This document shows, one piece after another, positions 4,938-55,258 of a stretch of DNA of 64,000 bases (position 1 is its first letter; every line of letters starts with the position of its first letter). A model generated the notes under the pieces. The model was given only the letters and a program-made list of their open reading frames with translations. It did not search any database and was not told the DNA's origin. This stretch comes from Eledone cirrhosa (Eukaryota). Made by a program: the position numbers and the translations under genes. The DNA lies in assembly GCA_964016885.1 (NCBI GenBank), contig OZ024746.1:59830001-59894000 (forward strand), given 5' to 3'.

Positions 4938-4977
<40 letters not shown>

Positions 4978-5185
4978 CGTTTCTGAATTTGTTTAGCAAG
5001 ATTCTTTATCTGAAAATGTGTGTTGAAACCGATATTGTTATACTTTGGGAGGGTCATGTTGCCAATAAGAAACACACGCACCAGTTGCTTTCACTTCAAT
5101 TTATTATAATAAATTTATAAATTTAGGAATTCATAAATTTCTGGTTGGTTGGTTGGTTCCACAACCAGATGATTGTTTATATATT

Positions 5186-5228
5186 GTCAAAGTTCTTTCG
5201 TCACACATTCTGTGACCTCTTCAGTGAC
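5186..5228 (-). ncRNA. minimal type-I hammerhead ribozyme (family A)
   Basis: Reverse complement of the 5283-5325 motif. Confidence 0.75.
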
Positions 5229-5282
5229 TGGGGATTCTTTTCTTTGTTTTTGTGCCTCTCCTTTGTTCTGTCCTACCCATCA

Positions 5283-5325
5283 GTCACTGAAGAGGTCACA
5301 GAATGTGTGACGAAAGAACTTTGAC
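5283..5325 (+). ncRNA. minimal type-I hammerhead ribozyme (family A)
   Basis: gtca-CTGAAGA-g-gtcaca[gaatg]tgtgac-GAAA-gaac-TT-tgac. Confidence 0.75.
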
Positions 5326-5471
5326 AATATATAAACAATCATCTGGTTGTGGAACCAACCAACCAACCAGAAATTTATAAATTCCTAAATTTATAAATGT
5401 ATTATAATAAATTGAAGAGAAAGCAACTGGTGCGTGTGTTTCTTATTGGCAACATGACCCTCCCAAAGTAT

Positions 5472-5943
<472 letters not shown>

Positions 5944-6144
5944 TTAGTTATACTATTTATGGTTATGTAAACACAAAACCTTAAGCAGTTGTAAGTATTT
6001 TACACACACCCTAAATAGTGGTAGGCAGTAATGTATTACTACCTTATTACCAGTAAGTTAAGTAGCTCAATGTAAAAACATCAGATGATTTACAGAGCAG
6101 TTATATGAAATATATGAATCAAAGAACTGTTCAAAACATTATTG

Positions 6145-6191
6145 TGCTTACAGCTGTTTCCTCCAAACCGAGGTTTGGATTCTTCGGAGCA
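6145..6191 (-). ncRNA. type-I hammerhead ribozyme, CCGAAGA core variant (family C, copy 1)
   Basis: Reverse complement of 15508-15554. Confidence 0.75.
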
Positions 6192-7636
6192 ATTTATTAA
6201 TGCATGGACAGTTATATGACCTCCTTTTCAGCCGAGAGACATACCAATACATATTCAAACATTGATACATATTCAAACATTGTGGGTCAACATTCATTAC
6301 AGAATTTAGAGTGGCAGTACACACTTCGAGATTACATTTATATTAATAGGTACAATCAAAAAAATCAAAGATATAGGTTAAAATACAACATGAAGATAAG
6401 TGGTTATATAGTGCAAATGTTATATGTGTGGCACGCATGTGCGTCTTGTTTATATAGTGTGGCAGAGAGATATGTGTGGTAGAGGCACTTAGGTAGGTAA
6501 ATAAGAGTGTTAGGTTGGTAGATCTGGTGGCAAAGTCTTTATATGATTGATATAGTCTGTGTGTGGAGAAATATTATAAGCATTAAAGATAGTGCAAGCA
6601 TTAAAAGTGTTATAAGTATTGGAGATGCACAGCGCAGGGATGTCAAGTAATTCATGTACTTCGGTATTTTCATGGTCAAGGGAGTGTATATTTCGATTAT
6701 ATGCCTTTCACATAATCCACGACAATCCAGTTAGAGATCGTAGTCTGGTGCTCTTTAGTTCGATACAGGTGGTTGTTACGTTTCGAGAGACGCCATTGAA
6801 TACCGGAAGTGTGTGTGTGGCTAAGGGGAGTTAATGCATGCGGGGAGGTAACTCTGGGGTTTCTATATCTAGCCATTAAAATGTGTCTCAATATAGACCC
6901 TAAATTCTATGGTGAGGTGCACCTTCCAAGAGAGACTTTTAAAGCATAAAGTGTACTAACTATAGAGTAGTTTAACTAAATTATGCTGAAGGTGATCATA
7001 TTATTATTAGGGTGGATTAACCCATCTTAAGGTGCTACAAATGGAAATTATAGATGATGAGCGAGGGTTCTAAATTAATGATCTCTATGGTTGTAGTCTG
7101 CTCATATGACCAGGCGCGGTGATTGCAGGATTGCTTCAGGACCCAATGATCTCTGGTAAGATCCGGGTCATCGCTTGCTACATTGGATGTCGAAAGATAA
7201 TCATCCCCAAGCAGGCCAAAGGTCAAGTCGCAGTCCTCGCGACCCCTCTCTGACCGTCAGATCATCCATATACGTACAACCCGCACGGCAGTTGCATTGC
7301 ATTCACTCACTGCGCTCAGCGGCCTGGTCCTACTGGTCAACAGCGCTACTCGATTAAATCATTTTACATCTGTCTAAGGAAGGTGTTTCCTCTGCCCAAC
7401 ACCATCCAACCGATCAATTGATGCTCAAATTACCCTTAGAGCGGCGTAGTGCCGTCCAGGTGGGTGGATGTTGTCACACCTGCCGTAGAGGTATAAATGG
7501 GTATTTTCCCTGCGAAGGGTTCCAGAGGGATGTCGTTGTTTGTGTTATAATGTATCAGCTAGTGTTGGGTATGTAGTATAGGGTGTGTCTCTGGTGTTTG
7601 ATGCTAGATGTGGTGTTAGGTTCCAGTCCGACATTG

Positions 7637-10096
7637 CTATATATGGGGCTTAAAGTTTTGGAAGGAATGTCTGAGGCGGTGCTGGCAAGTTGCAAACACC
7701 TCAGATTTTTTGTTAAGTAGGTTACGGTTGGAGAAGATAATATTGTGTGTCTCTAGTATACAGAGGTTACAGAATTTATTAGGTGGTTTGTACGAGGTCG
7801 CGCTGCCTATCACTTCCCATTTGAGTGTGTATGGTTTATTTTTAGATTTTAGATAGTGAATGTAGCTAGAAAGTGAGGTGGAGTTGGCTAGGCTGTGCTT
7901 TTTGAACGAGTGGATGTGCGAGTTATATCTAATTTTGAAGCAGTTAGAAGTGGAGCCTACATAGGTTTCTGAAGAGTTATTAGTCGTGACTGTGCATGAG
8001 TATATGACATCCTTGGTTAGGCATTTTTTATCTAAAGGGCAGGTTCTATTAGCTCTACAGTTACAATTATTCTGTGCGTTAGTCCGCTGGTTATAATGCA
8101 ATGCGGAAGTCTGTGTGGTGGGTATAGGATTTTGGGTGTTCAGGTTGACAACCCTGGTGTTATTACTTATACTAGTGTTATTTCCATTGTTACTGCCGTT
8201 GCTATTGTTGCTTGCTACAGTGGTATTTAGAGGGTTTGCATCCCGTTGCGATTTTGTTTGTTGGAAGTAAGAACTAATTTTACTATTATTGCTGCTAGCT
8301 ATGTGGTATGCTAAGTTAGGCGTCGTGGAGTATGAGATTTTAATGGTGTTTTTGTTTAAGAGGTTGTGGTACTTGTGTCCTAGAGGGAAGTTTTTATCTA
8401 GTAGTGAGAAGAAAGCCCTAGGTATGTTGGTGGAGACATTTAGGTTGAAAGGAGGGTTGAAAAATGTATTATTTCTTCTTCTATTTTTGCTTTTAGTGTT
8501 TGGTGTGTTGCTTCCTCCTAAGGCCTCACAGTAGTTTCCATGGTAATGGTTACTTCCGGTGGCACCCTCCGCTTTGGTGTACTTGTGGTTGCTATTCCTA
8601 TTATTAGATTTCCTCATGGACATGTTGTGCGAGATGATGTTGTAGCTATGTGTTTTCTTAGGTAGGAACTCAATTTCTATATTATGGCCGGAGCTAGCTA
8701 ATGCTTGATTGTAATATTGTGAGTTTTTGCTAAATATGTTTGCGTCATAGGACAGACTAGAGATTCTATTGGACACCCCCTTAGAGATAGAGTTTAATAT
8801 TGATCTAGGGTGATTAGACTTGGTATCTACGTAAATAAGTTTCTCATTAGGCTTATGGAAGGGTGTATATATTTTTGAGTCTAGGTATAGTGTGGCGTCT
8901 AGGAAGTTAACATTTTTAGTGTTTTTGTCCATGGTGATACTAAGGTTAAAGTTTTTGAATGTCTTATGCAGTTGTTTTCTAGTTCTTTCTATATTAAATT
9001 TCTTATATTCTATGAGTAGAAGTGCATCATCGCGGTACAAACCACCGTTGAGGTAAGGGAGGTCTTTATGGATTTCATTGAGGAGGTATAGGCCGACCAA
9101 ATCAGTGACCTGCGCCGAGTCACTAGATCCCATGGTTATGTCGAAGTTGTTGTGCGTATCCTTGCGTGTCCATAGTTGGTCCTCGAAGGTGATTATGGTT
9201 TTACGGGCCGCAAGGATGACATCAACCTGGGCTCTAGTCAGGTCGCTATTGGTCATGGCCATGATAAGTGCCTTATTTAATAGGATAGGGGAAATAGAGG
9301 TGTAGTATGAATTGATATCAAATTGAATAAATTTTTTGTTCTTATTATTCTTGATATCCTTAAACCATTCAATTACTTCACCCGTATTTCCCCATTGTTT
9401 AAGGTGTATCTTGTGTTTAATTTGTGGGATGATTTTATCCAAAATCTTCTTGCTGATAATACCAATGTCGGACTTGGAAGGGCAGATAAGTCTTATCGTG
9501 GGGTTGCTGATGAAGTTCTCCTTATGGTCCTTCAGAGAGAATCTAGGGGGGTTCGGAGTGAAAGGTTGTGTATGCCTCTGTAGTCCTAGTTTAGACACTA
9601 TATTATAACCCTCTACATTAATATCTTCTAAGTTTTTCAAGGTGGTTTTTTTGTAGCTTTTATGTAGTTCATTATATATAAACTTTCTATAAGTAATATA
9701 ATCTAGGCTGTATATGTTATTAGTTTTATCTGCGTGTACAATAATTTTATTACTAGTTTTGAATCCACTAATAGAAGTGTTAAGTTTGTTTAAGAAGGTG
9801 TTGCTTCTAATATGGTGCTTATTGTATTTAATGTTCTTAACTAGTTTAACTAGGTCATTTTCAAAGGAGTTAAGTAGAGTGTTATGAGGGGGGCTTTTAA
9901 AGGTTTTAAAGCCGAAGGAGTCAAAATTGTTAGTATTATTCAAGTTGTTAGATTTGTTTCTATCATAATGGAATGTCCTCCATCTCACTCTATTGATAAA
10001 TGAATTTACACTGTTGATCAGCAATTTCTCATATGTATTCTTGGATGGTATTGGTATGTTCTTGGTTGACATGGGGAGTTGGTCTTTGATTAGCAT
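7637..10096 (-). CDS. PLE polyprotein: reverse transcriptase + C-terminal GIY-YIG endonuclease (819 aa, intact)
   Basis: N-terminal STKNIPIPS..RVRW and ADKTNN; RT motifs FIQFDINSYYTSI, ITMGSSDS, GLYRDD, VNFLD; linker FFNPPF and CNCRANRTCPLDKKC; GIY-YIG VIY...YVG..KIRYNSH; C-terminal CNLCILE and CQH. Confidence 0.95.
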   Translation of the reverse strand: MLIKDQLPMSTKNIPIPSKNTYEKLLINSVNSFINRVRWRTFHYDRNKSNNLNNTNNFDSFGFKTFKSPPHNTLLNSFENDLVKLVKNIKYNKHHIRSNTFLNKLNTSISGFKTSNKIIVHADKTNNIYSLDYITYRKFIYNELHKSYKKTTLKNLEDINVEGYNIVSKLGLQRHTQPFTPNPPRFSLKDHKENFISNPTIRLICPSKSDIGIISKKILDKIIPQIKHKIHLKQWGNTGEVIEWFKDIKNNKNKKFIQFDINSYYTSISPILLNKALIMAMTNSDLTRAQVDVILAARKTIITFEDQLWTRKDTHNNFDITMGSSDSAQVTDLVGLYLLNEIHKDLPYLNGGLYRDDALLLIEYKKFNIERTRKQLHKTFKNFNLSITMDKNTKNVNFLDATLYLDSKIYTPFHKPNEKLIYVDTKSNHPRSILNSISKGVSNRISSLSYDANIFSKNSQYYNQALASSGHNIEIEFLPKKTHSYNIISHNMSMRKSNNRNSNHKYTKAEGATGSNHYHGNYCEALGGSNTPNTKSKNRRRNNTFFNPPFNLNVSTNIPRAFFSLLDKNFPLGHKYHNLLNKNTIKISYSTTPNLAYHIASSNNSKISSYFQQTKSQRDANPLNTTVASNNSNGSNNGNNTSISNNTRVVNLNTQNPIPTTQTSALHYNQRTNAQNNCNCRANRTCPLDKKCLTKDVIYSCTVTTNNSSETYVGSTSNCFKIRYNSHIHSFKKHSLANSTSLSSYIHYLKSKNKPYTLKWEVIGSATSYKPPNKFCNLCILETHNIIFSNRNLLNKKSEVFATCQHRLRHSFQNFKPHI

Positions 10097-10345
10097 ATTG
10101 GCAATATTATATGTCAGCTCAACGATATGGAGCAGTTAATAGTATTAGTTATACTATTTATGGTTATGTAAACACAAAACCTTAAGCAGTTGTAAGTATT
10201 TTACACACACCCTAAATAGTGGTAGGCAGTAATGTATTACTACCTTATTACCAGTAAGTTAAGTAGCTCAATGTAAAAACATCAGATGATTTACAGAGCA
10301 GTTATATGAAATATATGAATCAAAGAACTGTTCAAAACATTATTG

Positions 10346-10392
10346 TGCTTACAGCTGTTTCCTCCAAACCGAGGTTTGGATTCTTCGGAGCA
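10346..10392 (-). ncRNA. type-I hammerhead ribozyme, CCGAAGA core variant (family C, copy 2, upstream of the left ORF)
   Basis: Identical to 6145-6191 at offset +4201. Confidence 0.75.
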
Positions 10393-11602
10393 ATTTATTA
10401 ATGCATGGACAGTTATATGACCTCCTTTTCAGCCGAGAGACATACCAATACATATTCAAACATTGATACATATTCAAACATTGTGGGTCAACATTCATTA
10501 CAGAATTTAGAGTGGCAGTACACACTTCGAGATTACATTTATATTAATAGGTACAATCAAAAAAATCAAAGATATAGGTTAAAGTACAACATGAAGATAA
10601 GTGGTTATATAGTGCAAATGTTATATGTGTGGCACGCATGTGCGTCTTGTTTATATAGTGTGGCAGAGAGATATGTGTGGTAGAGGCACTTAGGTAGGTA
10701 AATAAGAGTGTTAGGTTGGTAGATCTGGTGGCAAAGTCTTTATATGATTGATATAGTCTGTGTGTGGAGAAATATTATAAGCATTAAAGATAGTGCAAGC
10801 ATTAAAAGTGTTATAAGTATTGGAGATGCACAGCGCAGGGATGTCAAGTAATTCATGTACTTCGGTATTTTCATGGTCAAGGGAGTGTATATTTCGATTA
10901 TATGCCTTTCACATAATCCACGACAATCCAGTTAGAGATCGTAGTCTGGTGCTCTTTAGTTCGATACAGGTGGTTGTTACGTTTCGAGAGACGCCATTGA
11001 ATACCGGAAGTGTGTGTGTGGCTAAGGGGAGTTAATGCATGCGGGGAGGTAACTCTGGGGTTTCTATATCTAGCCATTAAAATGTGTCTCAATATAGACC
11101 CTAAATTCTATGGTGAGGTGCACCTTCCAAGAGAGACTTTTAAAGCATAAAGTGTACTAACTATAGAGTAGTTTAACTAAATTATGCTGAAGGTGATCAT
11201 ATTATTATTAGGGTGGATTAACCCATCTTAAGGTGCTACAAATGGAAATTATAGATGATGAGCGAGGGTTCTAAATTAATGATCTCTATGGTTGTAGTCT
11301 GCTCATATGACCAGGCGCGGTGATTGCAGGATTGCTTCAGGACCCAATGATCTCTGGTAAGATCCGGGTCATCGCTTGCTACATTGGATGTCGAAAGATA
11401 ATCATCCCCAAGCAGGCCAAAGGTCAAGTCGCAGTCCTCGCGACCCCTCTCTGACCGTCAGATCATCCATATACGTACACTATTTAGGGTGTGTGTAAAA
11501 TACTTACAACTGCTTAAGGTTTTGTGTTTACATAACCATAAATAGTATAACTAATACTATTAACTGCTCCATATCGTTGAGCTGACATATAATATTGCCA
11601 AT

Positions 11603-14062
11603 ATGCTAATCAAAGACCAACTCCCCATGTCAACCAAGAACATACCAATACCATCCAAGAATACATATGAGAAATTGCTGATCAACAGTGTAAATTCATT
11701 TATCAATAGAGTGAGATGGAGGACATTCCATTATGATAGAAACAAATCTAACAACTTGAATAATACTAACAATTTTGACTCCTTCGGCTTTAAAACCTTT
11801 AAAAGCCCCCCTCATAACACTCTACTTAACTCCTTTGAAAATGACCTAGTTAAACTAGTTAAGAACATTAAATACAATAAGCACCATATTAGAAGCAACA
11901 CCTTCTTAAACAAACTTAACACTTCTATTAGTGGATTCAAAACTAGTAATAAAATTATTGTACACGCAGATAAAACTAATAACATATACAGCCTAGATTA
12001 TATTACTTATAGAAAGTTTATATATAATGAACTACATAAAAGCTACAAAAAAACCACCTTGAAAAACTTAGAAGATATTAATGTAGAGGGTTATAATATA
12101 GTGTCTAAACTAGGACTACAGAGGCATACACAACCTTTCACTCCGAACCCCCCTAGATTCTCTCTGAAGGACCATAAGGAGAACTTCATCAGCAACCCCA
12201 CGATAAGACTTATCTGCCCTTCCAAGTCCGACATTGGTATTATCAGCAAGAAGATTTTGGATAAAATCATCCCACAAATTAAACACAAGATACACCTTAA
12301 ACAATGGGGAAATACGGGTGAAGTAATTGAATGGTTTAAGGATATCAAGAATAATAAGAACAAAAAATTTATTCAATTTGATATCAATTCATACTACACC
12401 TCTATTTCCCCTATCCTATTAAATAAGGCACTTATCATGGCCATGACCAATAGCGACCTGACTAGAGCCCAGGTTGATGTCATCCTTGCGGCCCGTAAAA
12501 CCATAATCACCTTCGAGGACCAACTATGGACACGCAAGGATACGCACAACAACTTCGACATAACCATGGGATCTAGTGACTCGGCGCAGGTCACTGATTT
12601 GGTCGGCCTATACCTCCTCAATGAAATCCATAAAGACCTCCCTTACCTCAACGGTGGTTTGTACCGCGATGATGCACTTCTACTCATAGAATATAAGAAA
12701 TTTAATATAGAAAGAACTAGAAAACAACTGCATAAGACATTCAAAAACTTTAACCTTAGTATCACCATGGACAAAAACACTAAAAATGTTAACTTCCTAG
12801 ACGCCACACTATACCTAGACTCAAAAATATATACACCCTTCCATAAGCCTAATGAGAAACTTATTTACGTAGATACCAAGTCTAATCACCCTAGATCAAT
12901 ATTAAACTCTATCTCTAAGGGGGTGTCCAATAGAATCTCTAGTCTGTCCTATGACGCAAACATATTTAGCAAAAACTCACAATATTACAATCAAGCATTA
13001 GCTAGCTCCGGCCATAATATAGAAATTGAGTTCCTACCTAAGAAAACACATAGCTACAACATCATCTCGCACAACATGTCCATGAGGAAATCTAATAATA
13101 GGAATAGCAACCACAAGTACACCAAAGCGGAGGGTGCCACCGGAAGTAACCATTACCATGGAAACTACTGTGAGGCCTTAGGAGGAAGCAACACACCAAA
13201 CACTAAAAGCAAAAATAGAAGAAGAAATAATACATTTTTCAACCCTCCTTTCAACCTAAATGTCTCCACCAACATACCTAGGGCTTTCTTCTCACTACTA
13301 GATAAAAACTTCCCTCTAGGACACAAGTACCACAACCTCTTAAACAAAAACACCATTAAAATCTCATACTCCACGACGCCTAACTTAGCATACCACATAG
13401 CTAGCAGCAATAATAGTAAAATTAGTTCTTACTTCCAACAAACAAAATCGCAACGGGATGCAAACCCTCTAAATACCACTGTAGCAAGCAACAATAGCAA
13501 CGGCAGTAACAATGGAAATAACACTAGTATAAGTAATAACACCAGGGTTGTCAACCTGAACACCCAAAATCCTATACCCACCACACAGACTTCCGCATTG
13601 CATTATAACCAGCGGACTAACGCACAGAATAATTGTAACTGTAGAGCTAATAGAACCTGCCCTTTAGATAAAAAATGCCTAACCAAGGATGTCATATACT
13701 CATGCACAGTCACGACTAATAACTCTTCAGAAACCTATGTAGGCTCCACTTCTAACTGCTTCAAAATTAGATATAACTCGCACATCCACTCGTTCAAAAA
13801 GCACAGCCTAGCCAACTCCACCTCACTTTCTAGCTACATTCACTATCTAAAATCTAAAAATAAACCATACACACTCAAATGGGAAGTGATAGGCAGCGCG
13901 ACCTCGTACAAACCACCTAATAAATTCTGTAACCTCTGTATACTAGAGACACACAATATTATCTTCTCCAACCGTAACCTACTTAACAAAAAATCTGAGG
14001 TGTTTGCAACTTGCCAGCACCGCCTCAGACATTCCTTCCAAAACTTTAAGCCCCATATATAG
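11603..14062 (+). CDS. PLE polyprotein RT + GIY-YIG (819 aa), identical to 7637..10096
   Basis: Identical translation in the ORF track. Confidence 0.95.
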   Translation: MLIKDQLPMSTKNIPIPSKNTYEKLLINSVNSFINRVRWRTFHYDRNKSNNLNNTNNFDSFGFKTFKSPPHNTLLNSFENDLVKLVKNIKYNKHHIRSNTFLNKLNTSISGFKTSNKIIVHADKTNNIYSLDYITYRKFIYNELHKSYKKTTLKNLEDINVEGYNIVSKLGLQRHTQPFTPNPPRFSLKDHKENFISNPTIRLICPSKSDIGIISKKILDKIIPQIKHKIHLKQWGNTGEVIEWFKDIKNNKNKKFIQFDINSYYTSISPILLNKALIMAMTNSDLTRAQVDVILAARKTIITFEDQLWTRKDTHNNFDITMGSSDSAQVTDLVGLYLLNEIHKDLPYLNGGLYRDDALLLIEYKKFNIERTRKQLHKTFKNFNLSITMDKNTKNVNFLDATLYLDSKIYTPFHKPNEKLIYVDTKSNHPRSILNSISKGVSNRISSLSYDANIFSKNSQYYNQALASSGHNIEIEFLPKKTHSYNIISHNMSMRKSNNRNSNHKYTKAEGATGSNHYHGNYCEALGGSNTPNTKSKNRRRNNTFFNPPFNLNVSTNIPRAFFSLLDKNFPLGHKYHNLLNKNTIKISYSTTPNLAYHIASSNNSKISSYFQQTKSQRDANPLNTTVASNNSNGSNNGNNTSISNNTRVVNLNTQNPIPTTQTSALHYNQRTNAQNNCNCRANRTCPLDKKCLTKDVIYSCTVTTNNSSETYVGSTSNCFKIRYNSHIHSFKKHSLANSTSLSSYIHYLKSKNKPYTLKWEVIGSATSYKPPNKFCNLCILETHNIIFSNRNLLNKKSEVFATCQHRLRHSFQNFKPHI

Positions 14063-14165
14063 CAATGTCGGACTGGAACCTAACACCACATCTAGCATCA
14101 AACACCAGAGACACACCCTATACTACATACCCAACACTAGCTGATACATTATAACACAAACAACG

Positions 14166-14592
14166 ACATCCCTCTGGAACCCTTCGCAGGGAAAATACCC
14201 ATTTATACCTCTACGGCAGGTGTGACAACATCCACCCACCTGGACGGCACTACGCCGCTCTAAGGGTAATTTGAGCATCAATTGATCGGTTGGATGGTGT
14301 TGGGCAGAGGAAACACCTTCCTTAGACAGATGTAAAATGATTTAATCGAGTAGCGCTGTTGACCAGTAGGACCAGGCCGCTGAGCGCAGTGAGTGAATGC
14401 AATGCAACTGCCGTGCGGGTTGTACGTATATGGATGATCTGACGGTCAGAGAGGGGTCGCGAGGACTGCGACTTGACCTTTGGCCTGCTTGGGGATGATT
14501 ATCTTTCGACATCCAATGTAGCAAGCGATGACCCGGATCTTACCAGAGATCATTGGGTCCTGAAGCAATCCTGCAATCACCGCGCCTGGTCA
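14166..14592. ncRNA. putative structured RNA island in the PLE 3' UTR (mirror copy 7107-7533)
   Basis: GC-rich block in an AT-rich UTR with more than 10 nested stems found by eye; no convincing ORF. Confidence 0.4.
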
Positions 14593-15507
14593 TATGAGCA
14601 GACTACAACCATAGAGATCATTAATTTAGAACCCTCGCTCATCATCTATAATTTCCATTTGTAGCACCTTAAGATGGGTTAATCCACCCTAATAATAATA
14701 TGATCACCTTCAGCATAATTTAGTTAAACTACTCTATAGTTAGTACACTTTATGCTTTAAAAGTCTCTCTTGGAAGGTGCACCTCACCATAGAATTTAGG
14801 GTCTATATTGAGACACATTTTAATGGCTAGATATAGAAACCCCAGAGTTACCTCCCCGCATGCATTAACTCCCCTTAGCCACACACACACTTCCGGTATT
14901 CAATGGCGTCTCTCGAAACGTAACAACCACCTGTATCGAACTAAAGAGCACCAGACTACGATCTCTAACTGGATTGTCGTGGATTATGTGAAAGGCATAT
15001 AATCGAAATATACACTCCCTTGACCATGAAAATACCGAAGTACATGAATTACTTGACATCCCTGCGCTGTGCATCTCCAATACTTATAACACTTTTAATG
15101 CTTGCACTATCTTTAATGCTTATAATATTTCTCCACACACAGACTATATCAATCATATAAAGACTTTGCCACCAGATCTACCAACCTAACACTCTTATTT
15201 ACCTACCTAAGTGCCTCTACCACACATATCTCTCTGCCACACTATATAAACAAGACGCACATGCGTGCCACACATATAACATTTGCACTATATAACCACT
15301 TATCTTCATGTTGTACTTTAACCTATATCTTTGATTTTTTTGATTGTACCTATTAATATAAATGTAATCTCGAAGTGTGTACTGCCACTCTAAATTCTGT
15401 AATGAATGTTGACCCACAATGTTTGAATATGTATCAATGTTTGAATATGTATTGGTATGTCTCTCGGCTGAAAAGGAGGTCATATAACTGTCCATGCATT
15501 AATAAAT

Positions 15508-15554
15508 TGCTCCGAAGAATCCAAACCTCGGTTTGGAGGAAACAGCTGTAAGCA
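15508..15554 (+). ncRNA. type-I hammerhead ribozyme, CCGAAGA core variant (family C, copy 3)
   Basis: tgct-CCGAAGA-a-tccaaac[ctcg]gtttgga-g-GAAA-cagctg-TA-agca. Palindromic stem III, as in dimer-acting PLE hammerheads; predicted cut after 15550. Confidence 0.75.
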
Positions 15555-15585
15555 CAATAATGTTTTGAACAGTTCTTTGATTCAT

Positions 15586-15636
<51 letters not shown>

Positions 15637-22426: not shown

Positions 22427-22509
22427 GTAGGAGGTGCGTTTTATTGTAGTACAATAAAGCAATGCAGATATCGGATAAGAAGCACTCTACAGTTTGTGGG
22501 ACTGGAGTA

Positions 22510-24372
22510 TGCATAATATAAGATCAAACATCAAATTTTCGTATTCTACATCCTCCAATATTTCCAACATCATCTCTAAACACAACAACAAAATATTAAA
22601 TACTAAATCTCTTCCTTCCAATATCGAATTTCATAATAACAGTAATAGTACTCCCGACGTCATTGTAAACCCTAGGCTAACTTCTGTAAACCCAAATACA
22701 ACGTCAAACACAACTTCGCTAAATGTTCATAATCCAACTCTAAATCAAGAAACTATTATTCCTATTATTCCTATCGCAAACAACTTCTCCAATCCAATTC
22801 CTTCTATAGATAACACTAGATCACTCATTAATAATCTCTCTAATTGCAACTGCCGCATCAAAAATAAATGTCCTCTCAACAACCATTGCCTCGATAAAAA
22901 CTTAATTTATGAATGTAAATTTATAACTAGCACCAATTCCTTCACCTATTTTGGCTCCACTTCCACCTCTTTTAAAGCTCGTCTCTATAATCATCATTCA
23001 TCTTTCAAATACAAACTTAAAAGAACTAACACTGCTCTCTCAGAACTCATATGGTCCTTAAAAGACAAAAACATTAAATATAACATCCTTTGGAAAAAGA
23101 TTTCTTCTGCATCCTCATACTTGAACAGCTCTCTATCTAAAATCTGTAATCTCTGCCTAAATGAAAAATTTACCATTATCTCTAACCTAGATTCTATAAT
23201 AAACAGACGCTCAGATTTGTTTTCTATCTGCCTGCATAAATTCCATAGAACTTTTCACAAAGTATACAGTTAATATTCAATTCTTTATCAATTTAGAATC
23301 TTTTCTCAAAGGCACATATACATACACCTCTTTAAAATATACCCATCTACCTTACCTTACTTTAAAGGGCATTATACACTCTATAATACTCGTTTACTCA
23401 TTACCCTCATTCTATCTTCTCGTAAAATAATAACATTTGTTTTTGACATTTTGAATATTCATCCGCAATCATTATTATTTTTTCTCTCTATCATAAATCT
23501 TTTTAATCTCAATTTCATCCTTAATTTATTATTATTTTTTTCTCCCCATCAACGAACTCATTATTAATACATATCAATTCAATATACAAACTTTAACTTC
23601 ACATTATTTTTCTCAAATCCTTCTACACACAAACCATAACAACTTTTCTCTTCGCTAATTTTGAAATTGCCACAATACATACATTTCTTCTTTTGACGTT
23701 AGAATATTCACCCACAATTATTATTTTTTTCTCTCTATCTTCATACATAATTTCCCTTCGTTAATTTTCAAATTCCTTTAATTTATACATTATCTTCCAA
23801 CGGTTCCCAACCTCTCTATATTAAAACAATATATCTTTTTCTCAGTTATAAAAACTATCTCTTTCTCTCTATCACCCATCTCTCCCTCTCCACCTTCACT
23901 CTCATCTCCTCCCCCCTTTTTTTCATCCTTTCCACCCCACCCCCCACCCCCTCCCTAAATAAAATATTTTTTCCTCGCACATATCCTCCCTTCGTTAATT
24001 TTCAAAATTTTTAATTTATACAGTATCTTCCAACGGTTTTCAACCCCTCTATGTAAAAAATATATCTCCTCTCAGTTATAAAAACTATCTCTTTCTCTCT
24101 ATCACCCATCTCTCCCTCTCATCTCCTTCCCTTTTCATCCTTTCCCCCCCCCCTCTCTAAATAAAATATTTTTCCCAATATCACACATCAATCTAAAACC
24201 ACTTTTCATATGTTGATTTAAAACTGCACTATCAACAAGTGTTTTTTAGCCTTCATATCATGTTCTCCTGTTTTATCTGATGAAAACACAAATATTATTG
24301 CTTGATGATGTTTGTTTTTGAAATGCGCATAATAAAATATATGGAACTCCTTTAACCATCTTTTGATCTTAT
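22510..24372 (+). mobile_element. 5'-truncated PLE (second family): endonuclease domain, ~1.1-kb 3' UTR and hammerhead
   Basis: ORF 22494..23273 has IKFSYS, CNCRIKNKCPLNNHC, LIY..YFG, KARLYNH, CNLCLNE. A ~235-bp tandem duplication lies in the UTR (about 23753-23970 and 23987-24175). Confidence 0.85.
24271..24337 (+). ncRNA. type-I hammerhead at the 3' end of the second PLE (family E-like)
   Basis: ttttat-CTGATGA-aaacacaaata[..]tgtttgttttt-GAAA-tgcgca-TA-ataaaa; perfect stem I and palindromic stem III. Confidence 0.8.
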
Positions 24373-24912: not shown

Positions 24913-27077
24913 TTTCTTTATTAGCCACAGGGGCACAAAAGAAGGGGACAAATACAAAGGGGGAAGTTTACATACAATAAAAACGTGTAAAATGTTATCA
25001 CACATGGAATTTAAAAAGTTAGTCGATTTTCCCCAATAGAGGGAGACAGTTTATATGGGTAACACATACCCCCGAAAAAAAATGTGCAACCCTCATCTCC
25101 AGGAGTACGAAGAGCTTGTACTCCTTTCCTCTCCTCCTCCTTTTCCTCAACCTACAGGCTGATATAGAGAGAAGGCCCATTCACTCGGGCCATTCTCGCC
25201 ACTTTCACCCACCTTTCATAAAACTTGCTGGGGTACAGCACCTCACTCTCCATCCTGATTCTTCTTCCAAAGTGGTATTTGAAAAAAAGAATCAGTTGTT
25301 GGCCGGAGAGAAAGGTGTCTGACCTCAGCCCTTTCAACCTTGTCCACCATACAACCTCTTTCGCCATAGCTATCACACAAAGGAAAACCGCCTCTCCTTC
25401 GTTTTTGAAGGAGGGTGGCGGTTTGATCATGACAATGGACTCGGTGGTCAACTGGATTGGTCCCACCCGCGACAATAGTCGTTCTACATAGCCCCACAGG
25501 TCAGTGACGCCCGGGCAGTGTATGAATGCGTGCGCGACGGTTTCTTCGTCTCGCACGCACCTCGAACAGATCTTTTTTGCAGGGTCCCTGCCCGGGCGCC
25601 CATGTCTGTAGAGCTTGTCTCGAACTGGTAGAGCTCCTCGGTAGCACTGCCAGGCCAGGGACTTTTGGAAGTTGTCCATCGGTCCCGGGCGGAAGGTCCT
25701 ACCGAACAGACTGGCCAGTTCATCTTCCTCTACGCCTAGAGTTTCACCGAGCGCGTCGTCGCACTTGCTGCGGACCAACCCTCTATAGAATGACGAAGTG
25801 GAGTCTCCACTGATCGCCGGGTCCGCCTGCCAGAGGGCTGTGAGCGCCTGAGCACATTCGATGTGCCAGTCGCCCATTTTCCTCGGTCTTTGCTTGACTC
25901 AGGACTGCAGCTCGGTCAGCGAGACAAGTCGTGGGAAGGCTCGCCTCACGAACGGGGCCCACACCGGTTGTCCGGTGAGGAATACGTAGAGATGCCGCAG
26001 CCTGAGCGCGTGTTTGCGCATCGTCAACCACGGCATCCCCAGCCCTCCGTTAGAAGGGTGTTGGCAGCAGATGGATCTTCTCACCAAAGGAGCCCGCCTC
26101 TTCCAAAGGAATCGGAAGAGCGCGCGCTCCATTTTGGCGAGCGTTTTGGCTGGACAAGGCACGACGGTCAAGCGGTAGTAGATGGTGGACGCTATAAAAG
26201 TGTTCGCCACCTCCGCTCGACCTTTCAAGGATAGTTTGCACTCGGCCCACTTCTGGGTGAGTGCAAACACCTTGGCCGTCACTTCGTTCCAGTTCTTCTC
26301 CACCTGGAGGTCCGGACCAAACCAGACCCCGAGCAGCTTTACCGGTCCTTCCGTCCAGCGTCCGACGACGCCATCGGAAGGCATCGGTCTGCCTCTCCAC
26401 GATCCGAGTTGCAAACCGATGGACTTGTCCCGGTTCAGCTTCGCTCCTGTGAGACTTTCGTATTCCTTTAGTAAGGTGCCGACTTCCTCGATTTGCGAGG
26501 CGCTCGACACCATTACTGTCACGTCGTCGGCGTAGGCCGACGCCGCTTTCCGCAGTCCCGGTTCCAGAGGGATGCCCTGCAATAGCTCCAGCTTCCGCAG
26601 TAGTGGCTCGAGAGTCAGTACGTACAGAAGGGAGGAGAGAGGGCATCCCTGTCGAATGGATCGCGTAATATGGAACGGCTCCGAGAGGTAGCCGTTCACC
26701 TTGACCCTTGAGCAGATGTTGCTGTTGTGCATTGCAGCAATCCAGCCCCTGAACACGGGTCCGAAGCCTGCCGCCTCGAGCACCGCATCCAGGTAACGAT
26801 GGTCAACTCTATCGAAAGCCTTAGACTGATCCAAGTTGATCAGGGCCCCACCGAAGCCGGGTTTACACCCTACCCTCTCTATGATGTATCGCATGAGGTG
26901 GAGGTTGTCGTGTATGGACCTGGTCGGGATTGCGCATGTCTGCGCTTCTCCCACCAGGTTCTCGACGACAAGCGCCAGCCTCTTTGCCAACACCTTGGCC
27001 AAAATCTGTAACTCTGTGTTTAGCAGAGTTATGGGCCGGAAGTTGCCTATGTCATCCCCCTTATTCTCGTCAGGCAT
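24913..27077 (-). mobile_element. 5'-truncated L1/Tx1-clade LINE (RT, C-terminal Zn-binding region, 3' UTR)
   Basis: NFRPITLLN, LDQSKAFDRV, RQGCPLS, YADD, then CSRC..ETVAHAFIHC. ORFs 25899..27077 and 25152..25877 are in frame across one stop that is W in the 54310 copy. AATAAA lies just before (TA)n. Confidence 0.9.
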
Positions 27078-27692: not shown

Positions 27693-30277
27693 CGAAGGAA
27701 ATTTGGTAAGGAACCAGATGGACCATAACGCACCAAAGTACTCAATACTTAGGAACGAGTAGGACCCCGACGGCTGAGCTCAAGCCGTTTCGACGGCTAA
27801 TTCTGGACTAAATGAACATTTTTATCCTGGTAAATGAATAGCCGAGCTTCTCAGGGGGTAATTCCATATATGGTAAAAGTGATTGTCACAAGGATTGGTC
27901 AAAAGTTTGTTGTTGAGACACATAATTCTATCATGGCATTTTGTGGAAGGAAGGGGTAGCTGAACTTGCCAGTGGAAGAAAGAGGGAGAGGGAGTGAAGG
28001 AAACCCAGTCGTGAGTTGAAAGTGACGACTACAGCAGAATCCTAAGGATAAGAGGTCAAGGGGGGAGGGGGGATGTCGAAACAATAAGTAGATCTATATG
28101 GAGTAAATCTATATAGAAAAATAAGAATGTTAAAAATATAAAAAAACACAATTTCTGGTTACTATTCCCCTACCACAATCATCAAATCTCTCACTGGTAC
28201 TGCTAAACTATAGAAAAGTTTAATAGGTGGGACAGGATACTAAATACGAGATTGTAGTGAAAGAATTTTATGAGTTAGTAGTACTCGGCCTAATCTATCT
28301 TACAATGACAGGTCAACAAGTAGGGGGCCAAAATAATTTTTAAAAAACCTAATACGAAATAATAATTCAGAGTCCCGAAACTACTACGAAATATTAATTC
28401 AGAATCCCGAAAATGAATACGACATATAAGAGTACCGCTACAATACATAAATTCTAAGGCAAACTACATAAATGCTCGTACGATATCTAAGAAAAGATTA
28501 ATACGAAAAATTAATTCAGAATCCCCCCACCCACCCCATTGGGGCTACGGAGGACCGAAGGCCTGCCTCGGGGTGGGCGAGAAGGTGAAAAGAACGACGA
28601 CAAAGAAGGAGAACTGGGGTGGAAGGACTAGGAAGGGATGGGGGAAGTGTAGAGGAGACGATAAAAAATATATAAGAAAATCTTACGTCTACCTTTGTAA
28701 GCAGGGGTTACCCATTACAAAGTCGGCAAGTGGGGTGTTACAGAACATGTCTAACCCCCCCCCCCCCCGGTCATTATGGGGTTTAAGGGCGAGGTAAGTC
28801 CTACGCAATCTGTGTTTGCATGCAATTACCAGTTCGTCTCTCTTGTTTAGGAGTTGGTCCGTCGAAAACACCATTTGTAATGTTTCCTCCGAGCATAAGT
28901 TACACGGACGGCGTCCTCCCGTGTAAGAGTTGGCTCTGGACAGTAAGCTCCAAGTGAGATTATAGGTTATATTGTTTTCTTTGAGGTCCCAGATATGGCC
29001 CGAAAGTGTAGTGGCGTGACGCCGGGCCGGGTTTCGGAAAGTATGTCTGTGTTGGTATAGCCGGGTCTTGAAGTCACATGCGGTTAATCCTATATAAGCT
29101 TTGTTGGAGGTGTCCGTCCTCACGTTGCACTGATAGAGGGGGAAAATGGATCCAACAGGACAGTTACACCTCCTGGTAGGCTCTCCACTGCTATCGAGGT
29201 TATTTCTTCCATAGCGGTTGAGTTTTTTGTTGTTAGAGGAGACGATGTTTTGTGCAAAGTTAGGTGTGGTGCTGTAGGAGAGTTTGATGGTATTTTTGTT
29301 GATTATGTTGTGGTAGCGGTGTTGTAGTGGGAAGTGTTTTTCGATGAGCCTAAAGAAGATTTTCCCGATAAGTGTTGTCACCTCGGCGTTGTGAGGGAGG
29401 ATTGAACCATGTTACGTTGCGTGAGCGGAGGTGTCGCCTGCTGGTTCCGCTAATGGAAGCTGGACAGTAGAATATTTCCTCGCGGAAGCCACTCCGCTTG
29501 AGGGCCTGGTTGTAATAAGGCGCATGTTCCTCGAATATCTGCTCATTAGCGGACAAACGAGATATGCGGAGGGAAATGTTTTTAACCAGGTTATTGGTGA
29601 TGTTTCTATGATGGTTTGACCTACGGTGGATGTAGTGCAGGTTATCGTTTGGTTTCCTGTATGGGTAGTACAGATCATTATCGAGGTCAAGGGTAACGTC
29701 CAGGAAGTTTACTCGGGTTAGGGACGTTTGTAGGGTTAATTTAAATCCCCAGTCGCGGAAGAAGCTGATTAATTATTTCCGCACACGGTCTGTACTACTG
29801 GAGTTGTATCCTTTAAGGGTAAGGAGCCCATCATCACGGTACAATCCACCGCCGAATGCAGGAAACATATCGGTGAGTTTAAATAGTAGAAATAATCCTA
29901 TAAGATCTGTGGCCTCGGCCGAATCCGTCGCGCACATACTGACGTCGAAGGGAGAGTCGGGAGCTCTCTTTATCCATTTGGAGTTGTCGAAAAGTAGGAC
30001 TGTCTTCCAGGCGTGGAGGATGATATTTCTTTCCTGGTCGGTGATGGGCGCAAGTGTCTCGGCAAAGTCCAAGGCGGCCGTAAGGAGCGGTAAGGTAATT
30101 GAAGCATAGTAACTCTCTATGTCAAACTGGATGAATTTTGTGTCTCATTTGTCCTCCATATTGTTGAACCATGAGATTACTTCCTGGGAGTTGACCCATA
30201 GGCTAAGTCTGGCGTTTTGCTTAACTTTTGGTATAACGTGGTCTAGGATTTTTTTACTGATTCTCCCTATGTCGGAC
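27691..30277 (-). mobile_element. decayed PLE (third family), 5'-truncated, frameshifted RT + GIY-YIG with ~1-kb 3' UTR
   Basis: Fragments PSDIGRISKKILD, GGGLYRDDGL, YYNQAL..SG, VTWFNPP, IKLSYSTTPN, RCNCP, AYIGLT, CNLCSEE, CKHRLR are collinear with the 819-aa ORF. Confidence 0.88.
27764..27859 (-). ncRNA. decayed type-I hammerhead with long stem II and full stem III (family G)
   Basis: Minus strand: acccc-CTGAGAA(core mutated)-gctcggcta...tagccgtc-GAAA-cggct[tgagctc]agccg-TC-ggggt; sits at the 3' end of the third PLE. Confidence 0.6.
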
Positions 30278-54258: not shown

Positions 54259-54312
54259 TATATATATATATAATATTAGGTATAAGTTGTAGCTACCTTA
54301 TAGCAGGTACTA

Positions 54313-55258
54313 ATCGAGGCTGGCCAGTTCGTCTTCCTCCATGTCTAGGGCTTCTCCGAGGGCGTCGTCGCATCTGCTGCGTACCAGCCCTCTATAGAAG
54401 AGGGTGGAGTCTCCACTGATAACCGGGTCCGCATGCCAGAGGGCCGTGAGCGCCTGGGCACACTCAGTGTTCCAGGCGCCCAGTTTTCTCGGTCTTTGCT
54501 TGACCCAGGATTGCAGCTCGGTGAGTGAGACGAGTCTGGGAAAGGTTCGTCTCACAAACGGGGCCCACACCGGTTGACCGGTGAGGAATACGTGGAGGTG
54601 TCGTAGCCTTAATGCGTGTTTACGCATCATTAGCCACGGCATCCCCAGCCCTCCTTTCGAAGGGTGTTGACAGCAGATGGATCTCCTCACCAAAGGAGCC
54701 CGCTTCTTCCAAAGGAATTGGAAGAGTGCGCGTTCCATCTTGGCGAGGGTTTCCCTTGGGCAAGGCGCGACGGTCAGGCGGTAGTAGATGACGGACGCTA
54801 TATAGGTGTTCGCCATCTCCGCCCGACCTTTCAGGGATAGTTTGCAACTGGTCCACTTCTGGGTCAGTGCAAACACCCTGTTCGTAACCTCACCCCAGTT
54901 CTTCTCCACCTGAAGGTCTGGTCCGAACCAGACCCCGAGCAACTTCACCGGGTCCTCCGTCCAGCGTCCGACGACGCCATCGGAGGGCATCGGTTTGCCC
55001 CTCCACGTGCCGAGTTGCAAACCGATCCACTTGTCCCGGTTCAGCTTAGCCCCTGTAAACCTTTCGTACTCCTCCAGTAAGGTGCTGATCGCCCCGATTT
55101 CGGAGGCCGTCGACACCATTACTGTCACGTCATCGGCGTAGGCCGACACCGCTTTCCGCAATCCCGGTTCCAAAGGGATGCCCTGCAACAACTCCAACTT
55201 CCGCAGTAGTGGTTCGAGAGTCAATACATACAGAAGGGAGGAGAGAGGGAACCCTTGA
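54313..55258 (-). mobile_element. internal fragment of the L1/Tx1-type LINE (RT YADD region)
   Basis: 304-aa ORF collinear with the 25899..27077 product. A 3'-tail piece of the family lies in the opposite orientation at ~54030-54087. Confidence 0.88.

Follow-up and report, generated by a model that had tools for sequence, protein, structure and literature searches.

A very young, putatively Hydra-clade Penelope-like palindrome in Eledone cirrhosa, probably primed from both ends of a staggered (TA)n cut

Penelope-like elements (PLEs) insert in a characteristic form, with a partial tandem, an inverted 5′ copy and a tail of 30-40 bp at one end, as depicted in Fig. 2 of Craig et al. 2021 (PMC8557442) and described for Adineta Pen2a_Av (PMC3846280). 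The origin of the tandem and inverted repeats and of the tails is called open in PMC8557442, and the inversion has been explained by self-priming on an antisense template (2013, PMC3846280). For the anole Poseidon element PAc, both target strands were cut and extended in vitro, and the tail was delimited by starts at two internal sites (Frangieh et al. 2024, PMC11167929); the step leading to the inverted insertion was left open there, and the steps after initiation were called unvalidated. In PMC8557442 a Hydra family is reported in an octopus, an inverted 5′-truncated copy is noted for Penelope-13_HM, and the short unit (<3 kb) of the Hydra clade is a tendency, not a definition. In addition, retrozymes have been regarded as PLE derivatives (bioRxiv 10.64898/2026.07.22.740005).

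The window analysed here is a stretch of 64,000 nucleotides from Eledone cirrhosa, which contains a PLE insertion of 9660 bp at 5938-15597. Both outer ends of the insertion adjoin (TA)n, with a left target tract at 5476-5937 (the array was mapped to 5476-5940) and a right target tract at 15598-15630, followed by host DNA. This right-hand host DNA is single-copy and bears no relation to the left flank, which is itself a repeat. As the initial annotation had stated, the segments 6102-10221 and 11478-15597 are reverse complements; pairwise comparison gives a match of exactly 4120 bp that cannot be extended in either direction and contains a single difference, A6383 versus C15316, with G10584 also read in the third copy. 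Substantial divergence of the arms, which had been considered, is thus not what the alignment reveals. The segment 10139-11479 is a 1341-bp direct repeat of 5938-7278 with one mismatch, so that the spacer of 1256 bp (10222-11477) is, as claimed, a third copy of the 3′ region. The 2-nt CA microhomology at the head-to-head inversion junction (11478-11479) is likewise present, and the two ORFs, at 7637-10096 on the minus strand and at 11603-14062 on the plus strand, do encode identical products of 819 aa.

For the description of the arms a unit U of 4201 bp was defined, running from 10138 to 5938, and u-coordinates count along this unit. Arm A (5938-11479, minus strand, 5542 nt) consists of an upstream pseudo-LTR (u2861-4201, at 10139-11479) and one full unit (u1-4201), and ends at a fixed site, A, at u4201. 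Arm B (11478-15597, plus strand, 4120 nt) consists of u4119-4201 followed by u1-4037, where it ends at a second fixed site, B. The palindrome is asymmetric, the final 164 nt of the unit forming a 'tail' between the B and A sites that is present in arm A only (5938-6101, minus strand). A different repeat family, with many copies genome-wide, has also inserted head to head in the same (TA)n region, at 4976-5479; this short insertion has 199-bp arms that are 98.5% alike, an extra end of about 55 nt on one side and a CTGAAGA...GAAA hammerhead-like motif in each arm.

A Pfam scan of the 819-aa protein yielded nothing significant and no reverse transcriptase (RT) match. The three best Foldseek matches of its AlphaFold model (pLDDT 87) are telomerase TERTs (E 2-4e-8), and a YRDD motif is located at residue 354. 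The GIY-YIG residues Y699, Y712/G714, R723, E782 and N795 are conserved in at least 90% of 103 aligned proteins, the alignment including 102 of the 120 homologues listed. From these motifs and the predicted fold, the ORF is assigned to a telomerase-related RT with a putative C-terminal GIY-YIG endonuclease. The RT and endonuclease are connected by the linker CNCRANRTC at 678 (CxCX5C), with no cysteine pair within the GIY-YIG core, while CNLCILE776 provides a CxxC before the E and CQH804 a CxH after the N. DKT at 123 takes the place of DKG (DK[TS] in 100/102 homologues), and the RWK position reads RWR at 38, a conservative change (R[WF]K in 72/102). DKG and the endonuclease CCHH motif of Neptune, Nematis and Penelope/Poseidon are both absent from the protein. 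With (TA)n as the insertion target of the family, these characters, RWR aside, place the element in the Hydra clade, a placement made by motifs with the reference Hydra proteins compared by eye; the unit of 4201 bp exceeds the <3 kb that is typical of this clade. The initial annotation had looked for the clade among Naiad, Neptune, Poseidon and Chlamys, and by the motifs the element appears to belong to none of them. Naiad and Chlamys were considered and dropped, Naiad on its domain order: the endonuclease is C-terminal here, not N-terminal with a CxC linker and IFD. The only homologue with a species name derives from Argonauta. Two low-confidence Asn-rich inserts, at residues 485-533 and 630-673, account for the protein being about 110 aa longer than most homologues; inserts rich in Asn have been described in Adineta PLEs (PMC3846280). 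Elsewhere in the window, older relics of related Hydra-like elements occur at 22479-23258 (plus strand) and 28776-30276 (minus strand), with 32-44% protein identity, and two LINE-type reverse transcriptase remnants, 86% alike, at 25152-27077 (minus strand, with an RVT_1 match) and 54310-55255.

The two fixed 3′ ends, 164 nt apart, recur throughout the source genome, where exact matches against TA number 1023 for the A end and 1080 for the B end, and the unit junction is precise, with 129 exact copies. Insertions were sampled as 95 of the 100 A ends listed on contig C1, 31 B ends (all those carrying the variant of the window element) and 25 long loci, three loci belonging to two sets; the other 5 C1 A ends and 29 of the 129 unit junctions lie outside the sample. 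L140, an empty row with wrong coordinates, and L070 (joined to L069) were left out, and the arm statistics do not include the mini-unit locus G_C2_284. Among the 95 insertions chosen for their A end, an inverted arm that ends at u4035-4037 occurs in 63 (60 simple and 3 complex) and a B-arm trace of 5-30 nt in 10; in 1 insertion A is paired with A, in 3 the arm ends elsewhere, and 18 lack any B trace. Conversely, 29 of the 31 insertions picked by their B end have an A partner and two have none, and B is never paired with B. The inverted arms have a median length of 439 nt and reach 5.2 kb, exceeding 1 kb in 21/58 cases and spanning the ORF in 4/58. Thus the layout to which the initial annotation referred is the known one, but its remark that the inverted part is usually short does not carry over to this family, in which long arms are not rare.

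Five other double-full-length palindromes are present, at C1:56.97 Mb, C4:30.48 Mb, C4:159.05 Mb, C5:78.69 Mb and C10:50.25 Mb; their arms differ at 1-4 sites, and four of them have kept two long open ORFs. In a midpoint-rooted tree of 43 units the two arms are sisters in all six double-full-length loci, which lie on six separate branches, with the window element at the tip of a ladder-like lineage. The window palindrome is the long extreme of the normal architecture of its family, and, given a known layout and no fewer than five similar insertions in the source genome, the locus by itself is less surprising. Two palindromes of ~8.7-8.9 kb, L053 and L055, have almost no spacer. A non-autonomous, retrozyme-like variant at L196/L197 (C2:284698600-284700760) has a 508-nt unit (u3835-4201 + u1-141) that contains the hammerhead-like motif and is repeated in both head-to-head arms.

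The recurrence of this architecture bears directly on the question whether the palindrome could be an assembly fold-back artefact. Such an artefact would explain arms that differ by one base, at a locus known from the assembly alone, but it is very improbable: the mirror halts exactly at the family B site, excludes the flanks and is asymmetric, the single-copy right flank differs from the left, and the same architecture is found at the five other loci on their separate tree branches. Moreover, raw reads from other animals contain both the B end and inversion joints. In X19, 281 reads (largely from one flank) place the B end against (TA)n, as do 11 contigs in X2; opposite-strand joints with one start are supported by 55-84 reads in three runs, and two further such joints by a few reads each. 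Searches of public read runs, all from other animals, recovered relatives of the family but not the window junction at 11478-11479; no RNA run was among those listed, which has no bearing on expression. An empty allele in a haplotig was sought by means of the flanks, and the right flank was encountered at this place only. In the same public runs, hundreds to thousands of reads terminate at the positions corresponding to window 10850 and 10392 against varied AT-rich flanks, which suggests other fixed ends in related families.

Target duplications in the family enclose the A and B arms together. Since the (TA)n flanks of the window insertion are pure, they hold no informative duplication, and flanks in which (TA)n is interrupted were used instead. 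Out of 97 parsed flank pairs 23 were informative, of which 15 have duplications of 13 or 15 nt (shuffles: mean 2.1, maximum 8 in 2000), lengths that include bases shared with the element ends; in 8 the duplication is missing, two of these misses being parsing failures at mutated element ends. The arms are also alike in origin. In 63 arm pairs 113 differences were counted in 73,236 bp, and at shared polymorphic sites 10 differences were seen in these 63 insertions versus 568 expected if an arm came from a random copy; both arms of an insertion are from one source lineage.

These data speak against the idea of two adjacent insertions that entered the same (TA)n tract independently. Palindrome arms can undergo gene conversion, which might later have homogenised such insertions, and (TA)n is a hot spot, as the other head-to-head repeat at 4976-5479 illustrates. 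Nevertheless, this scenario is hardly credible. No target DNA lies between the arms, A and B are strictly paired, and the duplications, which span whole A+B insertions, largely refute the idea. In addition, divergence within insertions is 0.19% for direct repeats versus 0.14% for inverted repeats, and this equal likeness argues against a conversion specific to palindromes.

The window insertion is very young. From the one difference between two arms of 4120 bp an age of roughly 30,000 years is obtained (anything between zero and about 200,000), on a rate borrowed from an octopus scale in which a distance of 0.09 equals 25 million years (PMC13282606). Close relatives of the window element differ by 0.07-0.3%, an open ORF of 800-830 aa is present in 32 sampled loci, and recent activity of the family is shown; it may also be active at present, which the initial annotation took as probable. 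The single arm difference was also considered as a mark of two source loci, an interpretation that was dropped; the T at u3756 is found in older copies and in no close relatives.

The extents of the arms discriminate further between mechanisms. In 98 insertions the B arm lies inside the A arm 58 times and the A arm inside the B arm twice, while in 38 neither arm is contained in the other, including 18 in which the A arm is no longer than the tail. Arms of the latter kind cannot be fold-back copies of each other. In a fold-back mechanism, to which a self-priming idea in PMC3846280 is related, a long A-primed cDNA would copy itself as far as u4037 and anneal to a short B-primed cDNA of the other target end. 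At the window locus, where arm A contains the whole of arm B, as it does in the 58 nested insertions, this fits equally well. Its signature may be seen in the excess of symmetric junctions (15/98 within 10 nt, shuffled mean 1.2), including that of L055, which falls exactly at the stem-II hairpin of the hammerhead-like motif, in the 10 insertions with only a tiny B arm, and in the variant at u98 that is shared by both window arms and occurs in 0/38 other insertions. Yet folding back is unable to make the 38 non-nested insertions, would require at the window a 1258-nt loop closed by 2 bases, and still requires priming by both target ends; the private change of arm A at u3756, absent from arm B, also speaks weakly against it, as it may postdate the insertion. 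Fold-back is therefore regarded as unlikely, and the self-priming explanation of PMC3846280 fits the family poorly in view of the non-nested arms. Arm starts no more than 10 nt apart (8/58 C1 cases; shuffled mean 0.67, maximum 6) fit two copies running off one RNA end, and fold-back too.

Priming from both target ends would have left a more specific trace at the B site. Extra ATTTCATAT-type repeats of 7-9 nt are present, in one to three additional copies, at 26/110 terminal B sites versus 2/157 internal ones (p = 2e-9) and at 1/146 terminal A sites. Such repeats are the trace expected of a short-paired primer that slips on a template with repeated ends, and by analogy the stutter resembles telomerase-type repeat addition. 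LINEs are known to show slippage at their 3′ ends. In L168 (9480-9540), an internal B site within the A arm carries ATTTCATAT five times in tandem.

The opposite ends of the arms point to the limits of the template. Arms cross u2900-2680 in 61/70 first passages versus 2/10 second passages (p = 3e-5), and of the 10 arms that pass the unit junction and reach so far, 7 stop at u2820-2896, the most GC- and CpG-rich part of the unit; since insertions from a single lineage depend in part on one another, these p-values and the one above overstate certainty. The 5′ end of the window pseudo-LTR, u2861, falls within this cluster. The stops can be read as an RNA 5′ end, a transcription start deduced from DNA ends only, and arm A then probably represents a ~5.5-kb transcript copied in full. 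Accordingly, where the initial annotation proposed cDNAs of near or more than full length, the long arm is likely full length and not more.

A further candidate template is a circular 4.2-kb RNA, made by hammerhead cleavage and reverse transcribed from both ends in rolling-circle fashion. The unit contains, at u3948-3994, a hammerhead-like motif with a type I layout, a CCGAAGA core (the U4C variant) and a palindromic stem III, whose predicted cut lies 46 nt upstream of the B site. Motif scanning locates three copies in the insertion, at 6145-6191 and 10346-10392 (minus strand) and at 15508-15554 (plus strand), the first being cofolded in two copies as well, and the motif is present in each pseudo-LTR, a point in favour of the circular template. 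A 62-nt stretch containing it is identical in 275 copies. An Rfam scan identified no hammerhead family, only chance matches driven by (TA)n; a strict CTGANGA scan of the unit found none, the CCGAAGA motif having been spotted by eye; and the single-strand fold of the stretch has a z of -1.1. The motif is a candidate type I hammerhead. At least 15 other places in the window (e.g. 2917, 16341, 22106, 32686) have hammerhead-like motifs of several families, which suggests a high density of Penelope-like ends.

In favour of a circular template are, further, the precise unit junction with its 129 exact copies, the 2.03-unit locus and the repeated 508-nt mini-unit, and the 9-mer TAACTGCTC, which comes after the B site and, at the unit junction, after the A site too. 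This 9-mer could be a start signal common to both sites, which would favour templates that are multimeric or circular, or else a remnant of self-insertion. Against this, second-pass arms stop sharply at u2820-2896 (7/10) instead of decaying evenly, the U4C core is reported to lower hammerhead activity in vitro, although it suffices in a viroid (PMC3088659), and the anole system did without hammerhead cleavage in the work cited (PMC11167929). A circular template is accordingly judged quite improbable. The 2.03-unit locus, a 1.7-unit locus with a jump and the mini-unit locus are nevertheless exceptions, which show that the family also makes some use of templates that are multimeric or circular, or of template jumps.

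Taken together, the window insertion is probably a single, very young Hydra-clade insertion in which both 3′ ends of a staggered (TA)n cut primed two fixed RNA sites and the cDNAs were joined head to head. That a single recent event with priming of both target ends had taken place was already claimed in the initial annotation, and this is borne out by the fixed A and B ends, one each per insertion, as well as by the 13-15-nt duplications, the shared source of the arms, the non-nested arms and the B-end stutter. The 8/23 flank pairs without a duplication and the 18/95 insertions without a B trace count against double priming. Of the anole results in vitro, the cutting and extension of both strands speak for it, whereas a start site that did not vary with the strand is at odds with the strict A/B pairing. 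Genomic support for it is good for the family and moderate for the window locus. In this mechanism the endonuclease would cut both target strands to leave 3′ overhangs of ~13 nt, with A as the priming site of one overhang and B as that of the other. Both would probably be extended on the same ~5.5-kb transcript, whose start would lie near u2820-2900 in the upstream pseudo-LTR. At B the primer would pair over ~5 nt only and often slip, which would account for the additional ATTTCATAT-type repeats. The two cDNAs would then anneal by a few bases at their 3′ ends and each prime the second strand of the other; at the window locus cDNA A would have reached the RNA 5′ end (5542 nt) and cDNA B have stopped after 4120 nt. 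The single-RNA template and the mutual second-strand priming are inferred, and the sequence fits one RNA and two RNAs of one source locus alike, so these cannot be separated. More tentatively, and with somewhat less than even confidence, double priming on a single RNA may be programmed, with a fixed start for each cut end, mutual second-strand priming and one start serving as a telomerase-like repeat-addition template (up to 4 extra repeats). If true, a repeat-addition start would be a trait of the reverse transcriptases that form the sister lineage of telomerase.

A young, high-copy family offers a clean genomic record of exact start sites, one-to-one pairing, overhang length, shared template and stutter. 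The ~150 sister insertions suggest that the long-puzzling PLE structure is likely explained by an RNA copied from both cut ends with two fixed starts, and an intact protein combined with exact predictions makes the open mechanistic question testable. Furthermore, one insertion can generate near-perfect palindromes of 8-10 kb, some almost spacerless, which bears on genome stability and assembly. No description of strict A/B pairing, of PLE start-site stutter or of double-full-length PLE palindromes was found in the literature searched, parts of which older Drosophila Penelope papers may cover.

In L1 twin priming, reportedly put forward by Ostertag and Kazazian in 2001, both target ends are likewise said to prime and the head-to-head junction to show microhomology. 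The second site of L1 is variable and upstream and the two parts do not overlap, whereas the window family uses a fixed site and its arms overlap by up to 4.9 kb. With the Hydra clade as treated in PMC8557442 (Craig et al. 2021; Hydra-1_Obim, Hydra-1_Ajap), the window element shares an RT followed by a GIY-YIG domain, DKT, the CxCX5C linker, CxxC before the E, CxH after the N, the lack of CCHH, the (TA)n target and, close to the 3′ end, a hammerhead-like layout of type I. It differs from the Hydra families described there in its 4.2-kb unit with a 1.7-kb 3′ region (those being mostly <3 kb), in RWR for RWK, in its CCGAAGA hammerhead core and in its 164-nt tail, and its family is, by eye, distinct from Hydra-1_Obim. 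With the general PLE structure it has in common the layout, the junction overlaps of a few bases and the target duplications, the latter being 13-15 nt compared with 8-10 bp in the Adineta elements covered in PMC3846280; unlike in that general structure, the tail is four to five times longer and the inverted arm is long (median 439 nt). Anole PAc, as far as described in PMC11167929, resembles the window family in both-strand extension, two internal starts and an AT-rich target, but its start site does not differ between strands, whereas insertions of the window family nearly always have one A end and one B end, with stutter at B.
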